Below, one piece after another: positions 1,234 through 22,765 of a DNA stretch of 37,535 nucleotides. The notes under the pieces were generated by a model. That model had not been told where the DNA came from. It saw only the letters and a list, made by a program, of their open reading frames with translations, and made no database searches. This stretch comes from a virus. Its lineage: Duplodnaviria > Caudoviricetes. A program made the translations under genes and the position numbers. The stretch's first letter is position 1, and every line of letters starts with the position of its first letter. Where the stretch lies: IMG/VR virus record IMGVR_UViG_3300037485_000570, positions 1 to 37,535 of that record; one strand, written 5' to 3'.

Positions 1234-3506
1234 GCAAGGCTTCACCGGCATTTACCAGTTTCAATTCTGGCGAATTCAGTCCGATGCTGTCTGCTCGGAT
1301 AGATTACGACCGCTATAAGAACGGCTGCGAAGCACTGCAGAACATGATACCGACCGTGCAAGGGCCAGCATTGCGGCGCGGCGGCACGCGGCATATTGCA
1401 TCGACAAAAGAAATCATTGGGCGTCAGGAAAAAGTCTACCTTCACCCGTTTGTGTTTAATGAGACCACGGCTTATGTGCTGGAGTTTGGCTCGCAGTACA
1501 TTCGGTTTTATACAAATAACGCTCAATTGCAGATCTCTAGCGTTCCTGTCGAGGTGGTCAGTCCTTATTCGCTGAATGATATCTTTGCAGCAAACGGCAC
1601 CTGTCGGCTGCGGTTCGCTCAGTCTGGCGACTTTCTCTACATCACTCACCCGTCGTACCAGCCTAGAATTTTGAAGCGCGTTACCGCGACTTCGTTTGTG
1701 CTTGATCTATTCGAACCGAAAGGTGGGCCATTCATTGGAGTCGATCCTGACATCACGACGACCGTCTGGTCATCTGGTGAGACTGGCAGCGTCACGCTGA
1801 CTGCTTCGACGTCAATATTTCAGGCCGGTCACGTTGGCACGCTTTTTTTAATTGAAAGAAAGAACGTCAGCGGGGTGATTGCTTGGGAGCCTGGAAAAGC
1901 TGTTAATTCGGGCGATCTTCGGCGCAGCGATTCTAAGATTTACTCCGCGCTGAATAGCACACACACTGGAGTCGTTAAGCCCGTGCATTCTTTTGGCGCA
2001 GAAAGTGACGGCGCGGTCAATTGGCAGTTCATGCATGCTGGTTATGGCTGGGCGCGAATAACATCGGTAACAAGCGGGACGGTGGCCAGTGCTACTGTCA
2101 TTTCTCGGATACCTTCTGACGCGGTTGGCTCTGGCAATGCGACGACACGATGGTCGTTTTCCGACTGGTCGTCTGTTGAAGGCTGGCCATCGTCCGTTGC
2201 TTTTTTCCGTGAGAGGCTGTGCTTTGCCCGTGGGCAGAACATCTGGATGTCGGTTGCTGCTGCGTTCGATGATTTTTCGTCTCGCAATGATTCCGGGGAA
2301 ATCACCGACGACATGGCTATCAGTCTGGAGGTAGCATCGGGTGAGTTGAATGCGATCCAATGGCTGCACGCGGACAGAATGCTTGTCGCTGGTACGGCTG
2401 GCGGCGAGTTTTCGATTGGTGAACTGACGAACGGCGATCCGCTAGGGCCTGGGAACGTTAAGGCCGAGATTGTCAGCGGCTACGGCTCGCGTGGTGTGCA
2501 GCCGATCAGGTCTGGTGACAGGTCGCTATTTGTTATGCCGTCTGGACGCAAGGTGCGCGAGATCGGGTTCGACTTCAGTCAGGACGGGTATCAGTCGAAG
2601 GATGTTACCGTCTTGTCAGACCACATCACTGACAGTGGCATTGTCGACATGGACTTTGCCATCGAGCCGTACTCTGTTGTTTGGTGCGTCCGGGCTGACG
2701 GCGTGCTGCTTGGCTTTACCTGGAACAACGAGGAACAGGTTCAGGGCTGGCATCGGCATTTGCTTGGTGGTTCTAGTGGCGTCAATTCTACGGACGTTCC
2801 TTGGGGCGTTGTTGAATCCGTGGCGGTCATTCCGAGGCCGAACGGTCGCGGCGATCAGGTTTGGATGAGCGTTCGTCGTGGGCCTCCAGATGGCTTGCCT
2901 ATTGCTCCCACGCGCGAAGTTGTTTATATGGAAGATCCGTTCATTGAAGAAAATAACGGCTATCCGGTTCCAATTCCTGCGGCGCGCGATCAGTTTTATG
3001 TGGACTCTGGAAGCACGCACACGCCTGGAGGCGAGGTCGTTTCCGGATTGTCTCGGCTGAATGGTCAGACTGTTGCTGTTCTGGCTGATGGCGCTCCGCA
3101 CCCGGATTGCGTTGTGAGTGGTGGCTCTATTACATTACAGCGCTCTGCTCAATGGGTGCAGGTTGGACTGCGCTACAGTTCGATATTGAAGCCCATGCGG
3201 ATTGAGGCTGGTGCTGCTGATGGCACGGCGCAAGGGAAAACGAAGAGAATCCATAAGGTTGTTTTCCGGCTGGTCAGTAGTTCAAGTTTCCGCTACGGGT
3301 CGCGGCCTGACAACATTTTGACTATGGAGTTCCGTACTGCTGCGAATCAGATGGATAGGGCAGTGCCGTTGTACACTGGTGATAAGCTGGTTGATTGGCC
3401 TGGTGGTTATGAGACTGATGGCTATATTTACATCGAGTCGGACAGTCCGACCGCGCTGGGCATCGCCGGTATATTCCCGCAAATCGTCACGCAAGACAGC
3501 AGATGA
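1230..3506 (+). CDS. Tail tubular protein B / nozzle (T7 gp12-like)
   Basis: 758 aa. SFNSGEFSP N-terminus, GWPSSVAFFRERL, QVQGWHRH, DQFYVDSG and HLxG-like GQTVAVLADG motifs. Confidence 0.85.
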   Translation: MSKASPAFTSFNSGEFSPMLSARIDYDRYKNGCEALQNMIPTVQGPALRRGGTRHIASTKEIIGRQEKVYLHPFVFNETTAYVLEFGSQYIRFYTNNAQLQISSVPVEVVSPYSLNDIFAANGTCRLRFAQSGDFLYITHPSYQPRILKRVTATSFVLDLFEPKGGPFIGVDPDITTTVWSSGETGSVTLTASTSIFQAGHVGTLFLIERKNVSGVIAWEPGKAVNSGDLRRSDSKIYSALNSTHTGVVKPVHSFGAESDGAVNWQFMHAGYGWARITSVTSGTVASATVISRIPSDAVGSGNATTRWSFSDWSSVEGWPSSVAFFRERLCFARGQNIWMSVAAAFDDFSSRNDSGEITDDMAISLEVASGELNAIQWLHADRMLVAGTAGGEFSIGELTNGDPLGPGNVKAEIVSGYGSRGVQPIRSGDRSLFVMPSGRKVREIGFDFSQDGYQSKDVTVLSDHITDSGIVDMDFAIEPYSVVWCVRADGVLLGFTWNNEEQVQGWHRHLLGGSSGVNSTDVPWGVVESVAVIPRPNGRGDQVWMSVRRGPPDGLPIAPTREVVYMEDPFIEENNGYPVPIPAARDQFYVDSGSTHTPGGEVVSGLSRLNGQTVAVLADGAPHPDCVVSGGSITLQRSAQWVQVGLRYSSILKPMRIEAGAADGTAQGKTKRIHKVVFRLVSSSSFRYGSRPDNILTMEFRTAANQMDRAVPLYTGDKLVDWPGGYETDGYIYIESDSPTALGIAGIFPQIVTQDSR

Positions 3507-3925
3507 GGCTGGTTAAGTTTTCTGCCGAGCATCTTGCCACCTTGCGGCTGCAGCGTTCTCAGGAAGGGATGTCGTCGATAATTTCCGACATTCGCTACGG
3601 TCAGTCTTTAGAGACGCCTTGGTCTTTCACTGGAGTTCATAACGACACAATCATTGGGTGTGCTGGCGCTGTTGAGCTATGGCCTGGCCGAGCTTGTTTG
3701 TGGGCGCTGTTGTCGGATGATGCTGGTCGTCATTTTCTGACAACCCACCGGGCTGTTGAAGGCTTTCTCAAGGTTGCGCCTTGGTCACGAATAGAAGCCA
3801 CCGTCGATGTCCGTTTTGAAGCTGGTCAGCGGTGGATCAGAATGCTTAATTTTCAACACGAGGGACGGCTTCGGCGTTATACTCCAGACGGTCAAGACCA
3901 CGACTTATTTTCAAGGGTGAAGTGA
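3503..3925 (+). CDS. GNAT-fold acetyltransferase-like virion protein (T7 gp13 position)
   Basis: RIEATVD...GQRWIRMLNFQHEGRLRRY resembles the GNAT C-terminal motif; conserved synteny in podoviruses. Confidence 0.7.
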   Translation: MRLVKFSAEHLATLRLQRSQEGMSSIISDIRYGQSLETPWSFTGVHNDTIIGCAGAVELWPGRACLWALLSDDAGRHFLTTHRAVEGFLKVAPWSRIEATVDVRFEAGQRWIRMLNFQHEGRLRRYTPDGQDHDLFSRVK

Positions 3926-4516: not shown

Positions 4517-7285
4517 ATGCCACGAATTCCCGTCTACGAACAACGCACAACAGTTTCAAATTTAGGGCCAGCGCCAAGAGCCAGCGGCATTCCCGTGGGT
4601 TCTGTTGCGTCTGGGTTGAACGATCTCGGGCGCACTATTGGGGCGATCTCTGCCGACATGCTGCGTGTCCAGGAACAACAGCGCGAGGAAGATGCTGCGG
4701 TTGCGGCGACAACATCGCTGGCCGAGGGGAGGCTGCATTGGGCAAAACGTTTACAGTCGCTGTCGGACGAATGGACGCCTGATAAGCCTGGCGCGTACGA
4801 GACCTTTGAGTCCGAGTACAAGGATTGGGCTGGAAAGCAGATCGAGGCGGCTGGCACACCAAAAGTCAAGAATGCCATGCGCGAGCGTTTGGCTGGTTTG
4901 CAGTCTGATTTCGGATTGAATGCTTTCAAAATCGACCGCGATAAACGTATTGACCACAATGTCGGTCTTTTTGACCGGACTATTCGCGCATCGACCGATG
5001 CCGTGTTTGCAGACCCGTCGCAGCGCGCGAAAGTTCTGGACGATCTTCGGTCTGGCCTTGACTCTCTAACCATTAATAGCGACCGCAAGGCGGCGATTTC
5101 TATCAAGGTGCAGGACGAGATAAACAGCGCAGCCGAACAAGGCGAGCGCGCCAAGGTTGGCGACAATGCGTACCTGGCTCGGCGTGTGAGACTGGTGCCT
5201 GAGACCACCGGGGGAGTTCCTGCGGCGGCTCCGGCTGTTGAGCCACGTGCTGCCGCTGTGTCCGGCTTCGATGCCGTTGTCGCCATGACATTGAAGCATG
5301 AGGGCGGCTATGCGGCCAGCGATGGCAACACTGGCGCGCCTGTAAACTTTGGCATTAACCAGGCTGCGAATCCTGATGTGGACGTGAAAAACCTCACCCG
5401 CGAGGGTGCGGTAAATCTCTACCGAGATCGCTACTGGAATGCCATCGACGGCGACAAGCTGCCGCCTGCGCTTCAAGCCACGGCATTCGATGCTGCGGTG
5501 AATCAAGGCCCTGGCAACGCGAACAAGTGGATCGCTGAGTCTGGTGGTGATCCTGTAAAGTTTAACCAGTTACGTCGCGCCCATTACGAGTCGCTATTGG
5601 CTAAACCAGAGTTTTCTCGTTTTCGCAAGACTTGGATGGGTCGGCTGGAGCAGTACGAAAACATGGCCGAGACTGGTTCCGCGGTCACTCCGATAACTAT
5701 CGGCGGCATGCGTGCCGAGTTCTTGCCTGACGACCAGTTGCCCGAGTCGTTTCTTGGGCTATCGATACCGCAGCGCATGGCAATCTTGCGCGAGGCCGAG
5801 CAGGGTGCGCGTCAGCAATCTGCCGTGCAGACCGATGCTTTGCGCCAGCGTCTGGCTGATGCTGCTGCAATGGCGCGAGACGGGGTTGTCGACCCGAAGC
5901 CGATCACTCCCGAAGAGTTCTCTATCCTTGGCGACAAGGCACCAGGCGCGTCGCAGGAGTACCAGCGCACCCAGGTGATGGCGCAGGACATATCGCAGTT
6001 CAAAACCGCGCCTAACGATCAGCTGATCGGCATTGCTACTGGCGCGACGAGACGGGCGCAGCCTGGTGCTGGCTATGCTGCCGAGGATCAGCGGGACGAG
6101 ATACGTCAGCAGGCGGCGGGGCGCGTGCTCGAGCAGCGTTCTAAAGACCCGGCTGGCTATGTATCGAAAACGATACCGCAGGTAACGCAGGCATGGCGAG
6201 TGGCACTATCGGCGCAGGGTGAAAATCGTCCGGAAATGATTCGGCAGGCGGTGGCTCAGACGCTCGCGGCGCAGTGGGTTCTTGGTATTTCCGAACCGCG
6301 CATCTTGTCTGGTTCAATGTTGCAGGATTTGCACGGTCGAATCATGAAAGCCAGCCGACCGGAAGATGCGGCGAATATGGTGGCAATGATGGAGCAGGAG
6401 TACGGAAAAGACTATTTCCCGAAGGTGATGGACGAGTTGGTGCGTTCCGACAAAAACATACCGCCTGCGTTCATGATCATTCCGTCGCTGACAGACCCTG
6501 CAGCACGCGAGCATGTTTCTGCATTGTCTGTCGCGGACAAGAACGAGCTTAAAGGAACGATTGAGACCCAGGACGTTCGTGCGATTGGCGATGCCGCGAG
6601 AAAGTATGCTGCTGATCTGGCTCGCACCATGCCTCCTGTTGGCGCTTCTGGCATTAGGCTGGTGGCTTCCTATCAGGACATGATCGAGCGTATCGCTTTT
6701 GAGCGGATGCGGACGGGTAAGTCGACGAACGCTAACGATGCAGCCAAGGACGGCTACACTTTGCTGCTGGGTAATTTTGAGCTTGACGGCAATATCCGGG
6801 TTCCGACCGGGACAGATATGCGCGCTGTCAGGAAAAATGCGGACGTGCGACTATCTACTGAGGTTACAGAAAATCTGCAGCAGTCGGATGTTCCTCCGGA
6901 CATTTCGCGCGCCTATACCTCTGCCGAAGCGCTGGAGCAATGGCGCGGGATTGTTCGTTCCAATGGTGTCTGGTACTCGAACAGTGACAATACCGGGCTT
7001 GATCTTTGGGCGCGGGGCGATAATGGAGTTTTGTATCGCGTCAAACGGGACGACGTTCAGGTATCGTATTCATTTGATGAGTTGAAGCGCGAGCCGGAAA
7101 TAGTCAGGAGGGCGCGCGCTGGCAACATTCAGCCTAACGACTTGGATAAGGCACTCGCCACGGGTGATATGCGTCTGTATGAACGTATGCGCGTCGAGCA
7201 GCGTGCGGCGCAGGTTCGTCGTGAGAATGAGTCTGCGCGCCAGTACCAGACTGATAAAGCTAGACAGCAAATAGGCAGGCCATGA
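4517..7285 (+). CDS. Internal virion (ejection) protein with embedded GH108 lysozyme domain
   Basis: MPRIPVY start typical of these ejection proteins. LKHEGGY...NFGI...YRDRYW...FDAAVNQG at about 5270-5650 is a GH108 signature. Confidence 0.8.
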   Translation: MPRIPVYEQRTTVSNLGPAPRASGIPVGSVASGLNDLGRTIGAISADMLRVQEQQREEDAAVAATTSLAEGRLHWAKRLQSLSDEWTPDKPGAYETFESEYKDWAGKQIEAAGTPKVKNAMRERLAGLQSDFGLNAFKIDRDKRIDHNVGLFDRTIRASTDAVFADPSQRAKVLDDLRSGLDSLTINSDRKAAISIKVQDEINSAAEQGERAKVGDNAYLARRVRLVPETTGGVPAAAPAVEPRAAAVSGFDAVVAMTLKHEGGYAASDGNTGAPVNFGINQAANPDVDVKNLTREGAVNLYRDRYWNAIDGDKLPPALQATAFDAAVNQGPGNANKWIAESGGDPVKFNQLRRAHYESLLAKPEFSRFRKTWMGRLEQYENMAETGSAVTPITIGGMRAEFLPDDQLPESFLGLSIPQRMAILREAEQGARQQSAVQTDALRQRLADAAAMARDGVVDPKPITPEEFSILGDKAPGASQEYQRTQVMAQDISQFKTAPNDQLIGIATGATRRAQPGAGYAAEDQRDEIRQQAAGRVLEQRSKDPAGYVSKTIPQVTQAWRVALSAQGENRPEMIRQAVAQTLAAQWVLGISEPRILSGSMLQDLHGRIMKASRPEDAANMVAMMEQEYGKDYFPKVMDELVRSDKNIPPAFMIIPSLTDPAAREHVSALSVADKNELKGTIETQDVRAIGDAARKYAADLARTMPPVGASGIRLVASYQDMIERIAFERMRTGKSTNANDAAKDGYTLLLGNFELDGNIRVPTGTDMRAVRKNADVRLSTEVTENLQQSDVPPDISRAYTSAEALEQWRGIVRSNGVWYSNSDNTGLDLWARGDNGVLYRVKRDDVQVSYSFDELKREPEIVRRARAGNIQPNDLDKALATGDMRLYERMRVEQRAAQVRRENESARQYQTDKARQQIGRP

Positions 7286-16673: not shown

Positions 16674-16927
16674 ACCCGCGCGAGTTGCGGTGGAAGTATT
16701 CTTCACTCAATGAGGAACATCCTGGCGGGATCGACCCGGTAAAGTACGGCGTTCTTTGGCAGCGCGTCCAGGAAATGGACAAAAAGATCGATAAGATGGA
16801 ATCTAAGATCGAGGAATTGCTGGCGCTTGCAAATCGTGGGCGCGGCGGTTTGTGGATGGGTATGACGTTTATTTCAGTTTCTTCTGCGATTGTTGGCTAT
16901 ATCATCAGTATTTTTCTTAAGCGATAG
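16658..16927 (+). CDS. Small coiled-coil membrane protein (holin/antiholin-like)
   Basis: Coiled coil then RGRGGLW plus one C-terminal TM helix; immediately before the endolysin. Confidence 0.6.
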   Translation: MVDPIDPRELRWKYSSLNEEHPGGIDPVKYGVLWQRVQEMDKKIDKMESKIEELLALANRGRGGLWMGMTFISVSSAIVGYIISIFLKR

Positions 16928-16936
16928 GGGCTTGCT

Positions 16937-17413
16937 ATGAATTTTGATCAAGCGTTTGATGTTCTGCTTAAGCATGAGGGCGACTACAGCGATCATGCTG
17001 ACGATCCTGGCGGTCGGACGCGATTTGGTATCACCGAGGCCGTTGCGCGAAAGCACGGCTATACTGGTGATATGCGCCAGCTTCCCGTGAGTGCGGCAAA
17101 GGCAATCTATCGTGCAGACTATTGGGACGCTGTTCGTGCAGATGATCTGCCTGCTGAGATTCGCTACGTTGTATTTGATGGCGCGGTAAATTCTGGAGTT
17201 GGTCAGTCTGTTCGTTGGGTTCAGCGTGCCTTGGACGTTGCTGACGATGGACGTATCGGGCCAGTGACTTTGGCGGCTGCTCGTGCTGCTGATGGGAAGA
17301 GTTTGAAGGCTGCTATTTTGGCGCAGCGTCTGCGTTTCATGACGCGCCTGTCGAACTGGCCTTCGTTCTCGCGCGGCTGGGCTGTTCGTATTGCTGATTT
17401 GATGGAGGGTTAG
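16937..17413 (+). CDS. Endolysin, glycoside hydrolase family 108 with peptidoglycan-binding region
   Basis: FDQAFDVLLKHEGDY..DPGGRTRFGIT, YRADYW, FDGAVNSG, DGRIGPVTL, FSRGWAVR. Confidence 0.92.
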   Translation: MNFDQAFDVLLKHEGDYSDHADDPGGRTRFGITEAVARKHGYTGDMRQLPVSAAKAIYRADYWDAVRADDLPAEIRYVVFDGAVNSGVGQSVRWVQRALDVADDGRIGPVTLAAARAADGKSLKAAILAQRLRFMTRLSNWPSFSRGWAVRIADLMEG

Positions 17414-17944
17414 ATGGACCCGGTTTCTATTGCTATGACTCTCGCGCCCTACGCGCCCAAAATTATCAAATGGCTTTCTGGTAGCGATAAAGCCGAGCAA
17501 GCGGCAGAGCAGGTCGTCCAGGTGGCTCAAGCAATCACCGGGAAAGACGACGCTTTGCAAGCTGTTGAAGCGATCAAGGCAGATCCGGCTCTTGCGCTTC
17601 AGTTTCGTCAGTCCGTTATGGCGAACGAGCGAGAGTGGGATGCTATGTATTTGGTAGACCGGCAAAACGCGCGCGCACGCGATACAGAGTACGTCAAAGC
17701 TGGGCGGCAAAACTGGCGCGCCGATGTTCTAGCTGTTTTGGCCGTGGGTGGGCTTGTAGTTTGCGTTTGGTTTATCGCTCGTGACGCTGATCTTCCTGAA
17801 CGTGCGGTCAATGCCATTATGTTTGTGGCTGGCGTTCTGGCTGCGGCTGTTCGTGACGTTTACTCGTTTGAGTTCGGCTCAAGTCGTGGCAGTCGTGATA
17901 AAGACAACGTTCTTGCATCTATGCGAAACAAGGGAGGCGTATGA
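17414..17944 (+). CDS. Holin (GTA/3TM-holin-like)
   Basis: DRQNARAR motif, two C-terminal TM helices and FEFGSSRGS; adjacent to the endolysin. Confidence 0.7.
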   Translation: MDPVSIAMTLAPYAPKIIKWLSGSDKAEQAAEQVVQVAQAITGKDDALQAVEAIKADPALALQFRQSVMANEREWDAMYLVDRQNARARDTEYVKAGRQNWRADVLAVLAVGGLVVCVWFIARDADLPERAVNAIMFVAGVLAAAVRDVYSFEFGSSRGSRDKDNVLASMRNKGGV

Positions 17945-17995
17945 CGCAAAGAGTACCGGCTGCCGTAGGCAGTCCGGTGCAGCGACGGGTTAGCC
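17939..17995 (-). mobile_element. attC-like integron recombination site (57 bp; R' and L' boxes degenerate)
   Basis: Minus strand: GGCTAAC-CCGTC-GCTGCACCGG-ACTGCCTACGGCAG-CCGGTACTC-TTTGC-GTCATAC, i.e. R'', 5-nt spacer, L'', central hairpin, L', R'. Confidence 0.7.
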
Positions 17996-18028
17996 GGAAC
18001 CCTTGACGCCGGCAAAACGAAAGGAAAT

Positions 18029-18277
18029 ATGGAACCGAACCTGAACTTTGGCGAAGCACTGCAACTGCTCAAAGACGGCAAGAAGGTTGCGCGACGCGGC
18101 TGGAATGGCAAGGGCCTGTGGCTTGAACTGCAGGTGCCCGATGCTCACAGCAAGATGACCCTGCCCTACATCTTCATGAGCTACCCGGCCGACGCGCAAA
18201 ACACGCCGGGCGCCCGCGTGCCGTGGCTGGCCTCGCAGACGGACGTGCTGGGCGACGACTGGCACCGCGTGCCCTAA
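18029..18277 (+). CDS. tad2: DUF2829 / Tad2-like Thoeris anti-defence (signal-sponge) protein
   Basis: NFGEALQLLKDGKKVARRGWNGKG and PWLASQTDVLGDDW are DUF2829 hallmarks; GAAAGGA RBS. Confidence 0.8.
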   Translation: MEPNLNFGEALQLLKDGKKVARRGWNGKGLWLELQVPDAHSKMTLPYIFMSYPADAQNTPGARVPWLASQTDVLGDDWHRVP

Positions 18278-18287
18278 ACGACGCAAT

Positions 18288-18314
18288 GCCGGCACCGCGT
18301 GTATTGGTGCCGGC
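18288..18314. terminator. GC-rich hairpin at the convergence of late and early transcription units
   Basis: GCCGGCACC-9 nt-GGTGCCGGC perfect 9-bp stem; no U-tract, so terminator function is uncertain. Confidence 0.4.
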
Positions 18315-18493
18315 TAACAGGGATCAGTGTCGTTCGCTGCGCTGGGGTCGAGCAGATCGGTCAGTAGTTTCTCGGCTGCGATAATGGTGGATGCCAGGAA
18401 AATAACTGCTTGTTCTTTCTTGCCTGTTTCGAGCAGATTGGGCAGTCGTCTGGCGGCTTCTTGAATTTTGATTAAATGTTCGGCTTGGTTCAT
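18314..18493 (-). CDS. Hypothetical protein (59 aa, not in ORF track)
   Basis: MNQAEHLIKIQEAARRLPNLLETGKKEQAVIFLASTIIAAEKLLTDLLDPSAANDTDPC; AAGGA RBS; TAG stop lies inside GTTAGCC. Confidence 0.65.
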   Translation of the reverse strand: MNQAEHLIKIQEAARRLPNLLETGKKEQAVIFLASTIIAAEKLLTDLLDPSAANDTDPC

Positions 18494-18512
18494 GGCTGTC
18501 CTTGGTCAGTAG

Positions 18513-18578
18513 TTATCTGGTCGGGTATCGTTTGTTTTCACGCGCTTTGCGGCGGTCGTTGCGGGTTGGTTTGGTCAT
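18513..18578 (-). CDS. Arg/Lys-rich 21-aa peptide
   Basis: MTKPTRNDRRKARENKRYPTR; GAGAGG RBS; fills the gap between two operon genes. Confidence 0.45.
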   Translation of the reverse strand: MTKPTRNDRRKARENKRYPTR

Positions 18579-18581
18579 TTC

Positions 18582-18866
18582 TCACCTCTCGTCCCAAATG
18601 TCGAGTTCAGCGCAAACCGCCTCCATTCCCGGCCTCGCCTTATAAGTGACCAGTTCGCCACGATCATCAATGGCCGTGACGCGGCGGTAAGCCTGGCCAG
18701 GAAGAATGCACCACTTATCAGCCTCGGCTGCCTCGACTAATAGGCGCTGGTCTGCTGTTTCGCAATGCGCGGCTGTGTATCCAGACTTCAGCCACTGTGC
18801 GCTGGCGTCGCAGCGGTGCTGCTTTTTTGCAGTCACAATCTTGTCAGACAAAATTCTGTCAGTCAT
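18582..18866 (-). CDS. Hypothetical early protein
   Basis: ATGA-coupled operon gene; AKKQHRC...CILPGQAY motif is common in phage small proteins. Confidence 0.7.
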   Translation of the reverse strand: MTDRILSDKIVTAKKQHRCDASAQWLKSGYTAAHCETADQRLLVEAAEADKWCILPGQAYRRVTAIDDRGELVTYKARPGMEAVCAELDIWDER

Positions 18867-19111
18867 TTTTCACCCCTTGCTAGTATGGCTTCCTCAATAT
18901 CTTCAGCGTCTCTACCAGCGGCCACTTCGCTACAAAGTGCGGCACGTAGGGCATCGGCTTCGGAGCCGAGAAAATCAAAAAGGGTCTCAAACCTGTTAAT
19001 CCAAATGGTGTCTGTAATTTTCCCTTGTTCATTTGCCGCTTCGAGCGTGATGATTGCGGCCTCAATCGTTGTTAGCGCCTGTTGTGCGGCTTCTCTAAGT
19101 TTGTCAGTCAT
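18863..19111 (-). CDS. Hypothetical early protein
   Basis: Overlapping start/stop with both neighbours. Confidence 0.7.
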   Translation of the reverse strand: MTDKLREAAQQALTTIEAAIITLEAANEQGKITDTIWINRFETLFDFLGSEADALRAALCSEVAAGRDAEDIEEAILARGEK

Positions 19112-19434
19112 TCTTCATACCCTTCCATTATCAAATCAGCACATTCATGTAAAGCATCGAAAGCAAGTGGGCTTCGTCCGTTTGCTTCTGCGTAACATAG
19201 CTCGGCACACTCTTTGCGTACTTTTGCTTCAAAAGTTTTTTCGCGCTCATCATGCGAAGTCTGGTCAGACATCACTGCTCTAGCCAATGCTTCACAAGTT
19301 GTCAGCTTATTTTTCAGCTTGTCGTGCAGCGGTTCCCAGTATTCCATGTCAACAGAAGTTGTTTCAAAGTTTGGGTTTTCGACTAGCTGCTCAATTAGTC
19401 GCAGCTTTATTTCAAGCCTGTCGTCTTTACTCAT
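19108..19434 (-). CDS. Hypothetical early protein
   Basis: Overlapping start/stop with neighbours; CEALARAVMSDQ motif. Confidence 0.7.
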   Translation of the reverse strand: MSKDDRLEIKLRLIEQLVENPNFETTSVDMEYWEPLHDKLKNKLTTCEALARAVMSDQTSHDEREKTFEAKVRKECAELCYAEANGRSPLAFDALHECADLIMEGYEE

Positions 19435-19655: not shown

Positions 19656-19712
19656 ACATAACTTAACGTTTAAGCGGATTCGCTACGCTCACCACTGAAC
19701 TCGGCGTTAGGC
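19656..19712 (+). mobile_element. attC-like integron recombination site (57 bp)
   Basis: ACATAAC-TTAAC-GTTTAAGCGG-ATTCGCTACGCTCA-CCACTGAAC-TCGGC-GTTAGGC: R''/L''/L'/R' layout with an extra base in L''; intergenic. Confidence 0.8.
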
Positions 19713-19886
19713 CACACGGCCCCGCTTCCACGCGCGCAGCCAGTACGGCAGCCGCAGTGCCAGCGCCATCAAGATAAACGGCAAAGCCCACCATCTGGAT
19801 TCCGACGCCAACCACACGTTGGCAAGCACTATTTGCGCCCAGAAAGCCATATCTTCGGCAGTTGTTGGGTTTCCCATCATTTTCAT
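19707..19886 (-). CDS. Small Trp-rich membrane protein (59 aa, not in ORF track)
   Basis: MKMMGNPTTAEDMAFWAQIVLANVWLASESRWWALPFILMALALRLPYWLRAWKRGRVA; AAAGGA RBS; TAA stop lies inside GCCTAAC of the attC-like site. Confidence 0.7.
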   Translation of the reverse strand: MKMMGNPTTAEDMAFWAQIVLANVWLASESRWWALPFILMALALRLPYWLRAWKRGRVA

Positions 19887-20732: not shown

Positions 20733-21572
20733 TCAGATGGGCGAGTCATCGGTCTGCGGCATCTCGGCGGTCTGCGGCATCTCGATCACGTTGTCGTCTT
20801 GCGCTTGTTCTGGCTTTGACGGCGCTGCATCGGCTACACGCTGCAGCCTGCTCGGGCGCTTCGCTGCTGGCTCTGCGGCTGGCTCTGCGGCTTCTTGCTG
20901 GGCTGGAGCGGTTTCCGTGGCGGGTGGCATAAAAAGATCGTCGTCCTCGCGGATCACACCGTCGATGTCAGTGCTTAGTGGCAGACGCTTGGCATGGCGG
21001 CGCACCACGGTTTTCTTGGCCATCTCAGCAAAATCGGTGACCCAGGGGCCGGACTGACCGGAGCGGCTGCGGCGGCGTATCGCTTCGACATCCTCGACCG
21101 ACATCACCTCGCGGGACTTTTCGCCGTCCTTCATGGTCACGATGCTGTACACGGCGATCATCTTGCCCCGGCTGGCCAGCGTCGGCTTGTGAGTGATGTG
21201 CTCGTCGTCGCCCAGGCAGAAGTCGAAGCTGTCGTTTTCGTAGACTGCTTGGACTGACCAGGTGCTGATCTCGCCAGAGTTGCGGACTAGTTTCATGATT
21301 CCGGCGACCATCGGCATCCACTGTGCCTGGTCCTTGAAGGTAACGATGGCACCTTCTCGACCGTCCGGCATCAGACCCATCTGCGCGGCTTTTGTGGCGG
21401 CTGCGAACAGCGTCCGGCGGTCAGCCTGCATAAGCTGCGGGTTGGTCTGGACGGCGGTCAGTGTCGTGCGGACAAAGCGTTCGACCGGGACGTGAGACGG
21501 TAGCGCGGCTTTGAATTGTGGAGCCATTTTTTCGATGGCGGTTCGTACTTCTACTACTGCTGTGCTGCTCAT
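20733..21572 (-). CDS. recT: RecT-family single-strand annealing recombinase
   Basis: FKAALPSHVPVERFVR, AQMGLMPDGRE, GPWVTDFAEMAKKTVVRRHAKRLPLS; AAGGAG RBS before ATG 21572. Confidence 0.92.
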   Translation of the reverse strand: MSSTAVVEVRTAIEKMAPQFKAALPSHVPVERFVRTTLTAVQTNPQLMQADRRTLFAAATKAAQMGLMPDGREGAIVTFKDQAQWMPMVAGIMKLVRNSGEISTWSVQAVYENDSFDFCLGDDEHITHKPTLASRGKMIAVYSIVTMKDGEKSREVMSVEDVEAIRRRSRSGQSGPWVTDFAEMAKKTVVRRHAKRLPLSTDIDGVIREDDDLFMPPATETAPAQQEAAEPAAEPAAKRPSRLQRVADAAPSKPEQAQDDNVIEMPQTAEMPQTDDSPI

Positions 21573-21597
21573 ACTTGCTCCTTGGTTGGTTGGTTGG

Positions 21598-21616
21598 TGT
21601 TGCGATTTTCGCATCA
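21598..21616. promoter_or_regulatory. 19-bp palindromic operator upstream of recT
   Basis: TGTTGCGATTTTCGCATCA, adjoining a minus-strand TATACT (21616-21621). Confidence 0.7.
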
Positions 21617-21623
21617 GTATAAC

Positions 21624-22580
21624 CTAGTTTTTGCGGCTTGTGTTGGTTATTCTCATGTTTCTGTAGCCTTTTCGTCCACCATACGTCTGGCCGACCATGT
21701 CGGCGGTGATCACTGTTGGCGGCGTATCCGCGATCATACTGGCGCTTATTTTCCAGCCTTGTCCGATGACTTTCTCGGCATCGCCAATTGCGGTAAGCAG
21801 CATTGCTTTGGCGATCTCGGCGTCGTCTTTGGCGTTGTCTGCCAGCGCTTTGGCCGTTTTGTAGTTGGTCACCATCGTTTCGATATTCGCATCGTTGCTG
21901 GCATCAAGGACTTTACCTGGGTCAGCGTACTGGTGCAGCCGGATCACTGCCTGGGCATCGTCGGGCATGATTGGCGGCGGTTCCTCACCGGCAGCGACCG
22001 TGCGCCAGAATTCTGCGACCCGGTGACGTATGGCGCGGATCACTTCCTCGTCGCGCTCTCGCTCTATCACTACCGTTCTGTTGCCACCGATCAGTGCGCC
22101 GATGTAAGCGCGCTTGAGACCGGACACGGCCATTTGGTGCTGCACTTGCATTTCGATATGCTCGGGCGCTTCGACCGTGCCGTCGTCGTGCTCGATCCAG
22201 CCGTCGCGGAATGCCATGTAGTCGACGTTTTTGATCTCAAGGTGCGCTGCTCCGTCCGGGTGATTGGTGATCAGAAAGTCAAAAGAGGCTCCGATCCGTG
22301 CGTCCGGGTCGCGCATGTATTCTTTCATCGGGCGTATTTCCCATCCACGCTCCTCGGCGATGCCGTGCGCGATGGCGGACTCCAAGCGGTTGCCCCACTT
22401 CATGCGCTCGTTGGCTTTGAATTCCGGCGCTGTGCCGCTGTGTTTGCGATGCCACAGCTCGTAATGGGTCACGTAGGGCGACATACCAAAAAGGGCGGCA
22501 GATTCGGTGCTGGTCACGTCACGCTGGCGGTGCGCCAGCCATTCTGCCTCGGTAGTGTATTGGATTACTTCTGTTGTCAT
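21624..22580 (-). CDS. YqaJ-like (lambda-type) exonuclease
   Basis: EWLAHR...TSTESAALFG.SPY, WGNRLE, GASFD, LEIKN, QVQHQMAVSG; paired with RecT. Confidence 0.9.
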   Translation of the reverse strand: MTTEVIQYTTEAEWLAHRQRDVTSTESAALFGMSPYVTHYELWHRKHSGTAPEFKANERMKWGNRLESAIAHGIAEERGWEIRPMKEYMRDPDARIGASFDFLITNHPDGAAHLEIKNVDYMAFRDGWIEHDDGTVEAPEHIEMQVQHQMAVSGLKRAYIGALIGGNRTVVIERERDEEVIRAIRHRVAEFWRTVAAGEEPPPIMPDDAQAVIRLHQYADPGKVLDASNDANIETMVTNYKTAKALADNAKDDAEIAKAMLLTAIGDAEKVIGQGWKISASMIADTPPTVITADMVGQTYGGRKGYRNMRITNTSRKN

Positions 22581-22765
22581 TTCATGCACTCCCAATACTT
22601 GCCGTTGAATACTGGCTTGCCACCGTTTTTTACGCACAATGCGCGGTATTCTTCTGATGCAGGGTCTTTAACAGTGAAAACACTATGCGCGAATGCAAAA
22701 AATACAAAACTAGAAGCCACCGCAATTACCACTGTAATTACAGTTTCAAAAATAGCATCTTTCAT
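22577..22765 (-). CDS. Small membrane protein
   Basis: N-terminal TM helix and C..GG...WEC motif; ATGA coupling. Confidence 0.65.
   Translation of the reverse strand: MKDAIFETVITVVIAVASSFVFFAFAHSVFTVKDPASEEYRALCVKNGGKPVFNGKYWECMK

Follow-up and report, generated by a model that had tools for sequence, protein, structure and literature searches.

A Tad2-family gene at the late-gene end of a phage genome, probably stranded there from the inverted cassette array of another phage

Organization of the Tad2 locus

The window, by which the whole stretch of DNA that was analysed is meant, is a viral record of 37,535 bases with a CheckV completeness of 97%. Profile searches identified genes for portal, capsid, nozzle, RecT, YqaJ, helicase and primase, the coding region of RecT and YqaJ lying at 20733-22637. 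A second GH108 domain is part of a 922-aa protein of the virion region (4517-7285). A profile search of this 97% complete, 37.5-kb record gave no PF00589 recombinase and thus no sign of the intI gene of a complete integron, as the first-pass annotation of this DNA had reported. The Tad2 locus is the meeting point of the + strand late genes and the - strand early genes, and contains the following features, together with a second attC-like site further into the early region:

17414-17944, + strand: holin-like ORF of 176 aa, directly after a GH108 endolysin; phage backbone
17931-17960, + strand: start of a truncated tail-fibre-like gene, with its RBS and initial codons (ATG at 17941); phage backbone, holding the supposed R' and L'
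17941-18006, + strand: hybrid frame of 21 codons, beginning at the former start of the tail gene and running on through the attC arm; stop 22 bases before the Tad2 start
17955-17960, + strand: 6-bp microhomology ACCGGC at the left junction
17955-17996, - strand (top strand of the site): attC remnant with R'', spacer, L'' and inner stem-loop; outer L', spacer and R' missing
17989-18028, + strand: leader of the cassette, reaching from the R'' core to the RBS and including the left arm of a 13-bp terminal inverted repeat
18029-18277, + strand: Tad2-family gene, 82 aa (PF11195), inverted relative to attC
18288-18318, + strand: 3' hairpin (stem 18288-18314; fold z -3.6) and terminal core GGCTAAC (G|TTAGCC on the - strand)
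18314-18493, - strand: backbone ORF of 59 aa, its end altered by the insertion and its stop inside the core
18319-18322, + strand: four bases outside the core, absent from the empty allele; backbone resumes at 18323
19656-19712, + strand: second attC-like site (27.2 bits), also present in L081/G001

The holin-like ORF has a single hydrophobic segment, matches PHROG 1544 (function not assigned) and is a putative holin; it is 99% identical to its counterpart in L081, a near-identical phage without the Tad2 gene. The 59-aa ORF ends in DTDPC before its stop in the window, versus DTDI in relatives. No sigma-70-like promoter was found in 17400-18900, and coverage in the RNA run X15 was confined to the flanks of the locus. 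The 21-codon hybrid frame may have a role in expression. A variable early-gene block (18582-19418) adjoins the locus, starting at 18581/18582, and differs among the window, G001 and several sequencing runs.

The Tad2-family gene

The identification of the 82-aa ORF as DUF2829/Tad2 held up in an HMM search, in which it scored 80 bits against PF11195 (curated cut-off 25; E 2e-22), and it matched the Tad2 sequences of the PDB at E 1e-13 to 1e-9. The structure model of the protein had a pLDDT of 91.6 and a TM score of 0.80 to SPO1 Tad2 (8WJE). In HgmTad2, residues W21, N22 and G23 and residues W87, L88, S90, T92 and D93 contact gcADPR, according to the available text of the preprint (bioRxiv 10.1101/2023.11.15.567273). 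Their counterparts here are W25, N26 and G27 and W66, L67, S69, T71 and D72, paired by the motifs WNG and WLxSxTD and not by superposing the ligand. The protein thus resembles the described Tad2 proteins (SPO1 gp34.65, HgmTad2, MoTad2) in family score, fold and gcADPR-pocket residues; at 82 aa it is as short as SPO1 Tad2, while there are forms of 101-104 aa in the available text of that preprint, with a long insertion that binds cyclic dinucleotides. The protein is predicted to form the Tad2 tetramer, bind gcADPR and block Thoeris. The GC3 of the gene is 0.82, versus 0.48-0.50 for the lysis genes.

Most Tad2 genes lie outside cassettes: none of 79 other viral loci showed a cassette context, and 5 of 80 metagenome loci did. 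Four of these five (L107, L150, L153 and L159) have the gene flanked by two complete attC sites, and in the fifth (L160) it follows one attC. A quick Tad2 tree of 78 columns left 58 of 102 branches open and did not resolve a single cassette clade, so no claim about a clade is made. The closest relative, L001 (L001:1347-1640; 83% DNA identity), keeps both cores, has lost the attC and lies among structural genes; it is a second stranded Tad2 copy. A blastn search of the cassette unit against cultured phages returned 14 records, all matching within the ORF, and the shell around it was found in none of them.

Cassette-derived elements around the gene

Many of the elements that had been noted from the sequence alone are where they were placed. 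The core G|TTAGCCG lies at 18318-18311 on the - strand, R'' (CGGCTAAC) lies at 17996-17989, and the two belong to an inverted repeat of 12/13 bp (17989-18001 and 18306-18318) that was the only such pair obtained from the 122 GTTRR starts of the window's + strand. The RBS, the ORF at 18029-18277 (+) and the 9-bp hairpin at 18288-18314, which has no T run, are likewise present. The arm of the attC site with R'', spacer, L'' and inner stem is preserved, being identical to the intact L093 site at 47 of 48 positions over 17955-18002. The leader is similar in L091 and L093, and also in L001, whose DNA similarity begins at window position 17985. At the 3' end, the same 33 bases stand behind an Acb4-like gene in L226 (assigned by likeness to PF13876 matches), and near-identical ones behind the Tad1-like genes of L091 and L093.

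A single ORF is therefore enclosed by a core and its complementary inverse core, the same shell is found with other sponge genes, and relatives of the gene lie between two attC sites. This bears out the proposal that the gene derives from an attC-type cassette. Its direction is not the usual one, in which a cassette gene ends at R'': the ORF is on the bottom strand, with its start 33 bases behind R'', and is inverted. A standard cassette on the + strand was also considered and rejected, there being no attC after the 3' core.

The attC-like site was examined with a model of bacterial sites. Reference sites came from regions beside TIGR02249 integrases in 19 bacterial genomes, where pattern detection gave 121 sites on the strand of the array and 5 on the opposite strand. 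Alignment of 49 sites of 57-72 bases with a hand-set structure, in which 89% of the cells were paired, gave the model. The 57-bp site that had been proposed (17939-17995) scored 20.1 bits (rough E 0.0046), far below the intact copies of the same attC type in L093 (56.7 bits) and L091 (55.2 bits), and two of its L-box pairs are broken in the alignment. A score was thus obtained, but with a poor predicted fold. The pairing probability of the R box was 0.04 versus 0.89 in L093, the R' of the window being GTC, derived from the backbone; that of the outer L'' was 0.02-0.45 versus 0.92-0.97, and the extrahelical base of L'' is no longer reliably unpaired in the predicted DNA fold. Intact sites can also fold the R box weakly (0.26 in L091, as well as 0.06 in the second window site), so the fold alone is no proof of immobility. 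The resemblance to attC is real on the R'' side, but 17939-17960 is also found in phages without the Tad2 gene, and the site is therefore a hybrid.

A CALIN is defined by two or more attC sites within 3 kb and no intI. In the window, the second attC-like site lies 1.66 kb away on the opposite strand; these sites scored 27.2 and 20.1 bits on our own 49-site model, and one of the two is the hybrid. The bottom strand of the second site and the genes are both on the minus strand, so the arrangement is again inverted. Upstream, an ORF at 19707-19886 stops inside the core, and a 71-aa membrane-like ORF begins just behind R''. A strict pattern detector reported no attC on either strand of the window, the second site included. 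On a matrix for attI sites, the best window site reached 3.0 bits versus 7.6-21 for host sites, and the right end of the unit was rejected as an attI at -17.4 bits. The intact L093 attC had no blastn match among plasmids. Lone attC-like sites near score thresholds may thus be hybrids and not footprints of integrase insertion.

Empty alleles and junctions

Comparison with L081, a 14-kb record that is collinear with the window and in which PF11195 has no match, showed what was gained. Over 16900-17960 the two are 99.8% identical; L081 then has 41 different bases in place of the gene and matches the window again from 18323. A piece of 362 bp (17961-18322) therefore stands in place of 41 bp in near-identical phages, and the segment that had been taken as the inserted unit, 17945-18317, was wrongly bounded. 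Eight sequencing runs (X1-X5, X8, X13 and X15; Logan contigs), of which X2, X4, X5 and X8 come from other studies, were compared at the joint. In X2, X5 and X8, contigs bridge 17960 to 18323 with the 41-base filler, which X4 shows as loose ends on both sides. X3 bridges the joint with a longer filler of about 220 bases, so there is more than one empty allele at this site. X13 and X15 had no bridge across the joint, and in X1, which may be the run that the window came from, the entire stretch is in one contig. The recipient allele is essentially known from X2, whose flanks each show a single difference from the window; it contains no G|TT target that matches either end of the insert.

The sequence to the left of the gene belongs to the phage backbone. 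Positions 17931-17960 are identical in L081, and 28 of these 30 bases agree with the start region, RBS included, of a Gly-rich ORF of 236 aa in L176 (one of three matches) that belongs to PF21722 and a tail-fibre PHROG. In L082 a similar tail-gene start directly follows the holin-like gene. Identity to the backbone stops at 17960 and identity to the intact attC of L091, L093 and L095 starts at 17955, as does that of a separate attC contig in run X4, so the two partners share the six bases 17955-17960. No microhomology was demonstrable at the right junction, where the four bases that follow the core are found neither in L081 nor in L216. Neither junction, at 17955-17960 and at 18322/18323, falls at a G|TT as in an insertion by IntI.

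These breakpoints contradict the first-pass annotation, which had placed an IntI insertion exactly at the stop codon of the holin gene. The empty site that it predicted, the holin stop joined to CAGGGATC, occurs in none of L081, X2, X3, X4, X5 and X8; instead, the empty allele retains ATGACGCAAAGAGTACCGGC plus 41 other bases (L081, X2, X5 and X8). The GTCATAC that had been read as a decayed R' is the reverse complement of the stop/start overlap with the downstream tail gene, so there is no need for an original TAA stop. The suggestion that the cassette is locked in does stand: L' and R' are missing, and the unit is therefore probably not excisable.

Donor cassettes and their arrays

An exact 22-mer of the attC arm was found on six viral contigs, and all six carry a complete attC with L' and R' intact. 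Among these cassettes, L091 and L093 share the attC arm, the leader and the 3' hairpin with the window and carry Tad1-like genes (E 1e-12 to Tad1 in the PDB). The exact donor of the Tad2 piece was not found, the closest sequence being L001. Most leader-type cassettes show a terminal complementarity of 8-13 bases, and each end can form a local hairpin that starts at the core.

The polarity of the genes was recorded at 124 distinct sites on viral, metagenome and small genome contigs, a set that includes the two sites of the window and about 30 picked by means of the leader: 88 were inverted, 5 standard, 26 uncalled and 5 at an edge. The 121 bacterial sites beside intI gave 49 standard, 13 inverted and 59 uncalled. 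There is thus a family of cassettes with the order attC, leader, gene, hairpin and core, in which the genes are inverted and the same shell holds several sponge families.

Several of the arrays end in a site of the host attI type. With the attI matrix, which was built from 12 candidates hand-picked from 15 beside intI after the motif had been noticed in phage ends, scores of at least 6 bits were obtained for 7 of 26 cassette ends without a following attC (L205, L204, L189, L190, L150, L203 and L191), for none of 39 ends with a following attC and for none of 2,547 background sites. No integrase was found in the six of these seven records that were searched. TIGR02249 was found in none of 25 viral records, consisting of 24 with such sites or cassette remnants and one chance pattern match; 6 of them are at least 90% complete. 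The arrays would have been filled and shuffled by integrases of the host, supplied in trans and working on attC and attI-like sites. The arrays L091/L196 and L092/L197 share one end (after 3390-3623 and 1546-1968) that is neither attC nor attI and is possibly another docking site.

Cargo of the shared shell

The leader pattern identified 37 viral loci, of which five were dropped (four were not cassettes and one was cut by a contig end). The remaining 32 carried Tad2 (three, and one broken), Acb4 (PF13876; five), Sequestin (PF21825; two), Tad1 (two), an RyR domain (one), an exoribonuclease (five), an 85-aa family (seven) or other cargo (six); family names follow two preprints as far as their available text goes (bioRxiv 10.1101/2025.07.12.664507 and 10.64898/2026.05.28.727677). 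Sponge-type cargo was present in 13 of the 32 leader cassettes, which were collected with a pattern designed on Tad1 and Tad2 cassettes, versus 1 of 58 neighbouring cassettes classified by Pfam alone. Without the Tad1 and Tad2 rows the counts were 8 of 26 versus 1 of 58 (p 3e-4, with rows that are not independent).

The commonest cargo of this sponge-type shell was the 85-aa family (L179:1711-1968 and six near-identical copies). It matches the N-terminal half of PHROG 872, of which Tad2 is the C-terminal half, and its best PDB match had an E of 0.055. The family is a candidate new antagonist. Other cargo includes acyl-carrier-like, Mom-family and Lar restriction-alleviation proteins (L186:2594-2866, L095:759-1277 and L090:483-833), and several DNA methylases were seen among the cassettes. 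Searches for candidate anti-defence genes can use the leader as a simple DNA tag.

Origin of the Tad2 piece

With neither junction at a core, the evidence favours recombination between the backbone and a donor phage. The locus is probably best explained as a 362-bp piece, consisting of the Tad2-family gene and half of an attC, that was copied from the inverted array of another phage by short-homology recombination, took the place of 41 bp where the late genes end, and lost its mobility. A phage bearing such an array would have co-infected, or resided in, the same host as the window phage, and the stretch from the middle of an attC to four bases past the core would have been taken up by recombination where the late operon ends and where the truncated tail gene was presumably already present. 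RecT and YqaJ of the phage itself, or a similar route, could have served for the jump; the six shared bases are no proof of RecT action. The Tad2 gene would now face the late transcript and be read from it.

A route in two steps is unlikely. It would begin with the insertion of a complete cassette by IntI at a secondary site near 18318, after which a deletion through microhomology would have taken away the R' half of the attC along with 41 bp of backbone. The right junction does lie only four bases from the core, and a deletion of this kind would produce a left junction like the one seen. On this route, however, 18319-18322 would have to be target DNA, whereas L081, L216 and X2, which is near-isogenic, all have different bases there and offer no matching GTT; the right end, in addition, scored -17.4 on the attI matrix. 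Insertion by IntI exactly at the holin stop, followed by decay of R' and L', deserves almost no credence: GTCATAC does resemble an R', has the right spacing to R'' and lies in a stretch that reaches 20.1 bits, but 17939-17960 is unchanged in all empty alleles, where it is the start of the tail gene, and the empty site that this reading predicts is in none of them, so that it is refuted. It is also highly improbable that the cassette-bearing allele is ancestral and was lost by the relatives. Two alleles alone give no direction, but the filler continues the reading of the tail gene (MTQRVPASM versus MTQKVPASM in L176), the DTDI ending of L081 is also present in L216, a more distant phage, and the filled allele was whole in one of the eight runs.

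The donor might have been a cassette of a host chromosomal integron and not another phage. The attC type scores 55-60 bits on the bacterial integron model, the leader occurs on six GTDB genome contigs, and IntI is encoded in two of five such genomes tested. These GTDB matches, however, are on contigs of 1-11 kb, of which those with several sites show inverted genes of the kinds found at viral loci, while arrays beside intI are mostly standard in polarity where called; a sponge gene, moreover, would counter the defence of the host itself. A host donor is therefore very unlikely, and the array of another phage is preferred as the source.

A wider reading, which has about an even chance of being right, is that there is a mirror image of the integron among phages, with inverted cassettes in early operons, host-type attI ends and a borrowed host integrase. 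One lineage of it, marked by the leader hairpin and long terminal inverted repeats, would be a shared library of immune-signal antagonists (Tad1, Tad2, Acb4, Sequestin and the RyR domain), whose unnamed cargo, above all the 85-aa family, would be undiscovered antagonists. Other phages would draw on this library through ordinary recombination, and single genes would become fixed in their late operons, as in the window. This suggests that phages store counter-defence genes in integron format, turned so that phage transcription reads them. The window locus shows, at base resolution and against near-isogenic empty alleles, the exit of a cassette gene that became fixed in a phage backbone.

Comparison with known systems

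Integrons serve bacteria as stores of anti-phage genes. When a cassette enters a secondary site, the crossover takes place at the core and no target DNA is lost. Unlike secondary or attG insertions, the window has both junctions off the cores and 41 bp replaced. It does share with cassettes at secondary and attG sites, as far as they are described in the available text of a paper that cites them (Loot et al. 2024, cited in PMC12901181), a lone cassette-derived gene outside an integron. The locus is a stranded remnant of a real variant of phage integron cassettes that apparently has not been published: inverted phage arrays with sponge cargo were not found in a literature search with thin coverage of subscription journals.

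Sedentary chromosomal integrons, described as anti-phage libraries in the available text of a preprint (bioRxiv 10.1101/2024.07.02.601686), are likewise arrays of arms-race cassettes and use the same types of attC and attI. The donor family of the phages is their mirror image, in that its genes are inverted, its cargo is counter-defence and it has no integrase.

The closest comparison is with the clusters of attC sites in phages reported by Qi et al. 2023 (PMC9892861), who in the available text showed activity of IntI1 on five sites. Those phages, like the window, have attC sites without intI, and phage attC sites were recombined by IntI1 in their assay; methyltransferase cargo was read as counter-defence, and illegitimate recombination was raised as a route into phage genomes. 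Their arrays are described as typical or mosaic, and systematic inversion, host-type attI ends without intI and sponge cargo do not appear in the available text of that paper. The site in the window differs from the sites described there in being a hybrid of two half-sites, one from a cassette and one from the phage backbone.
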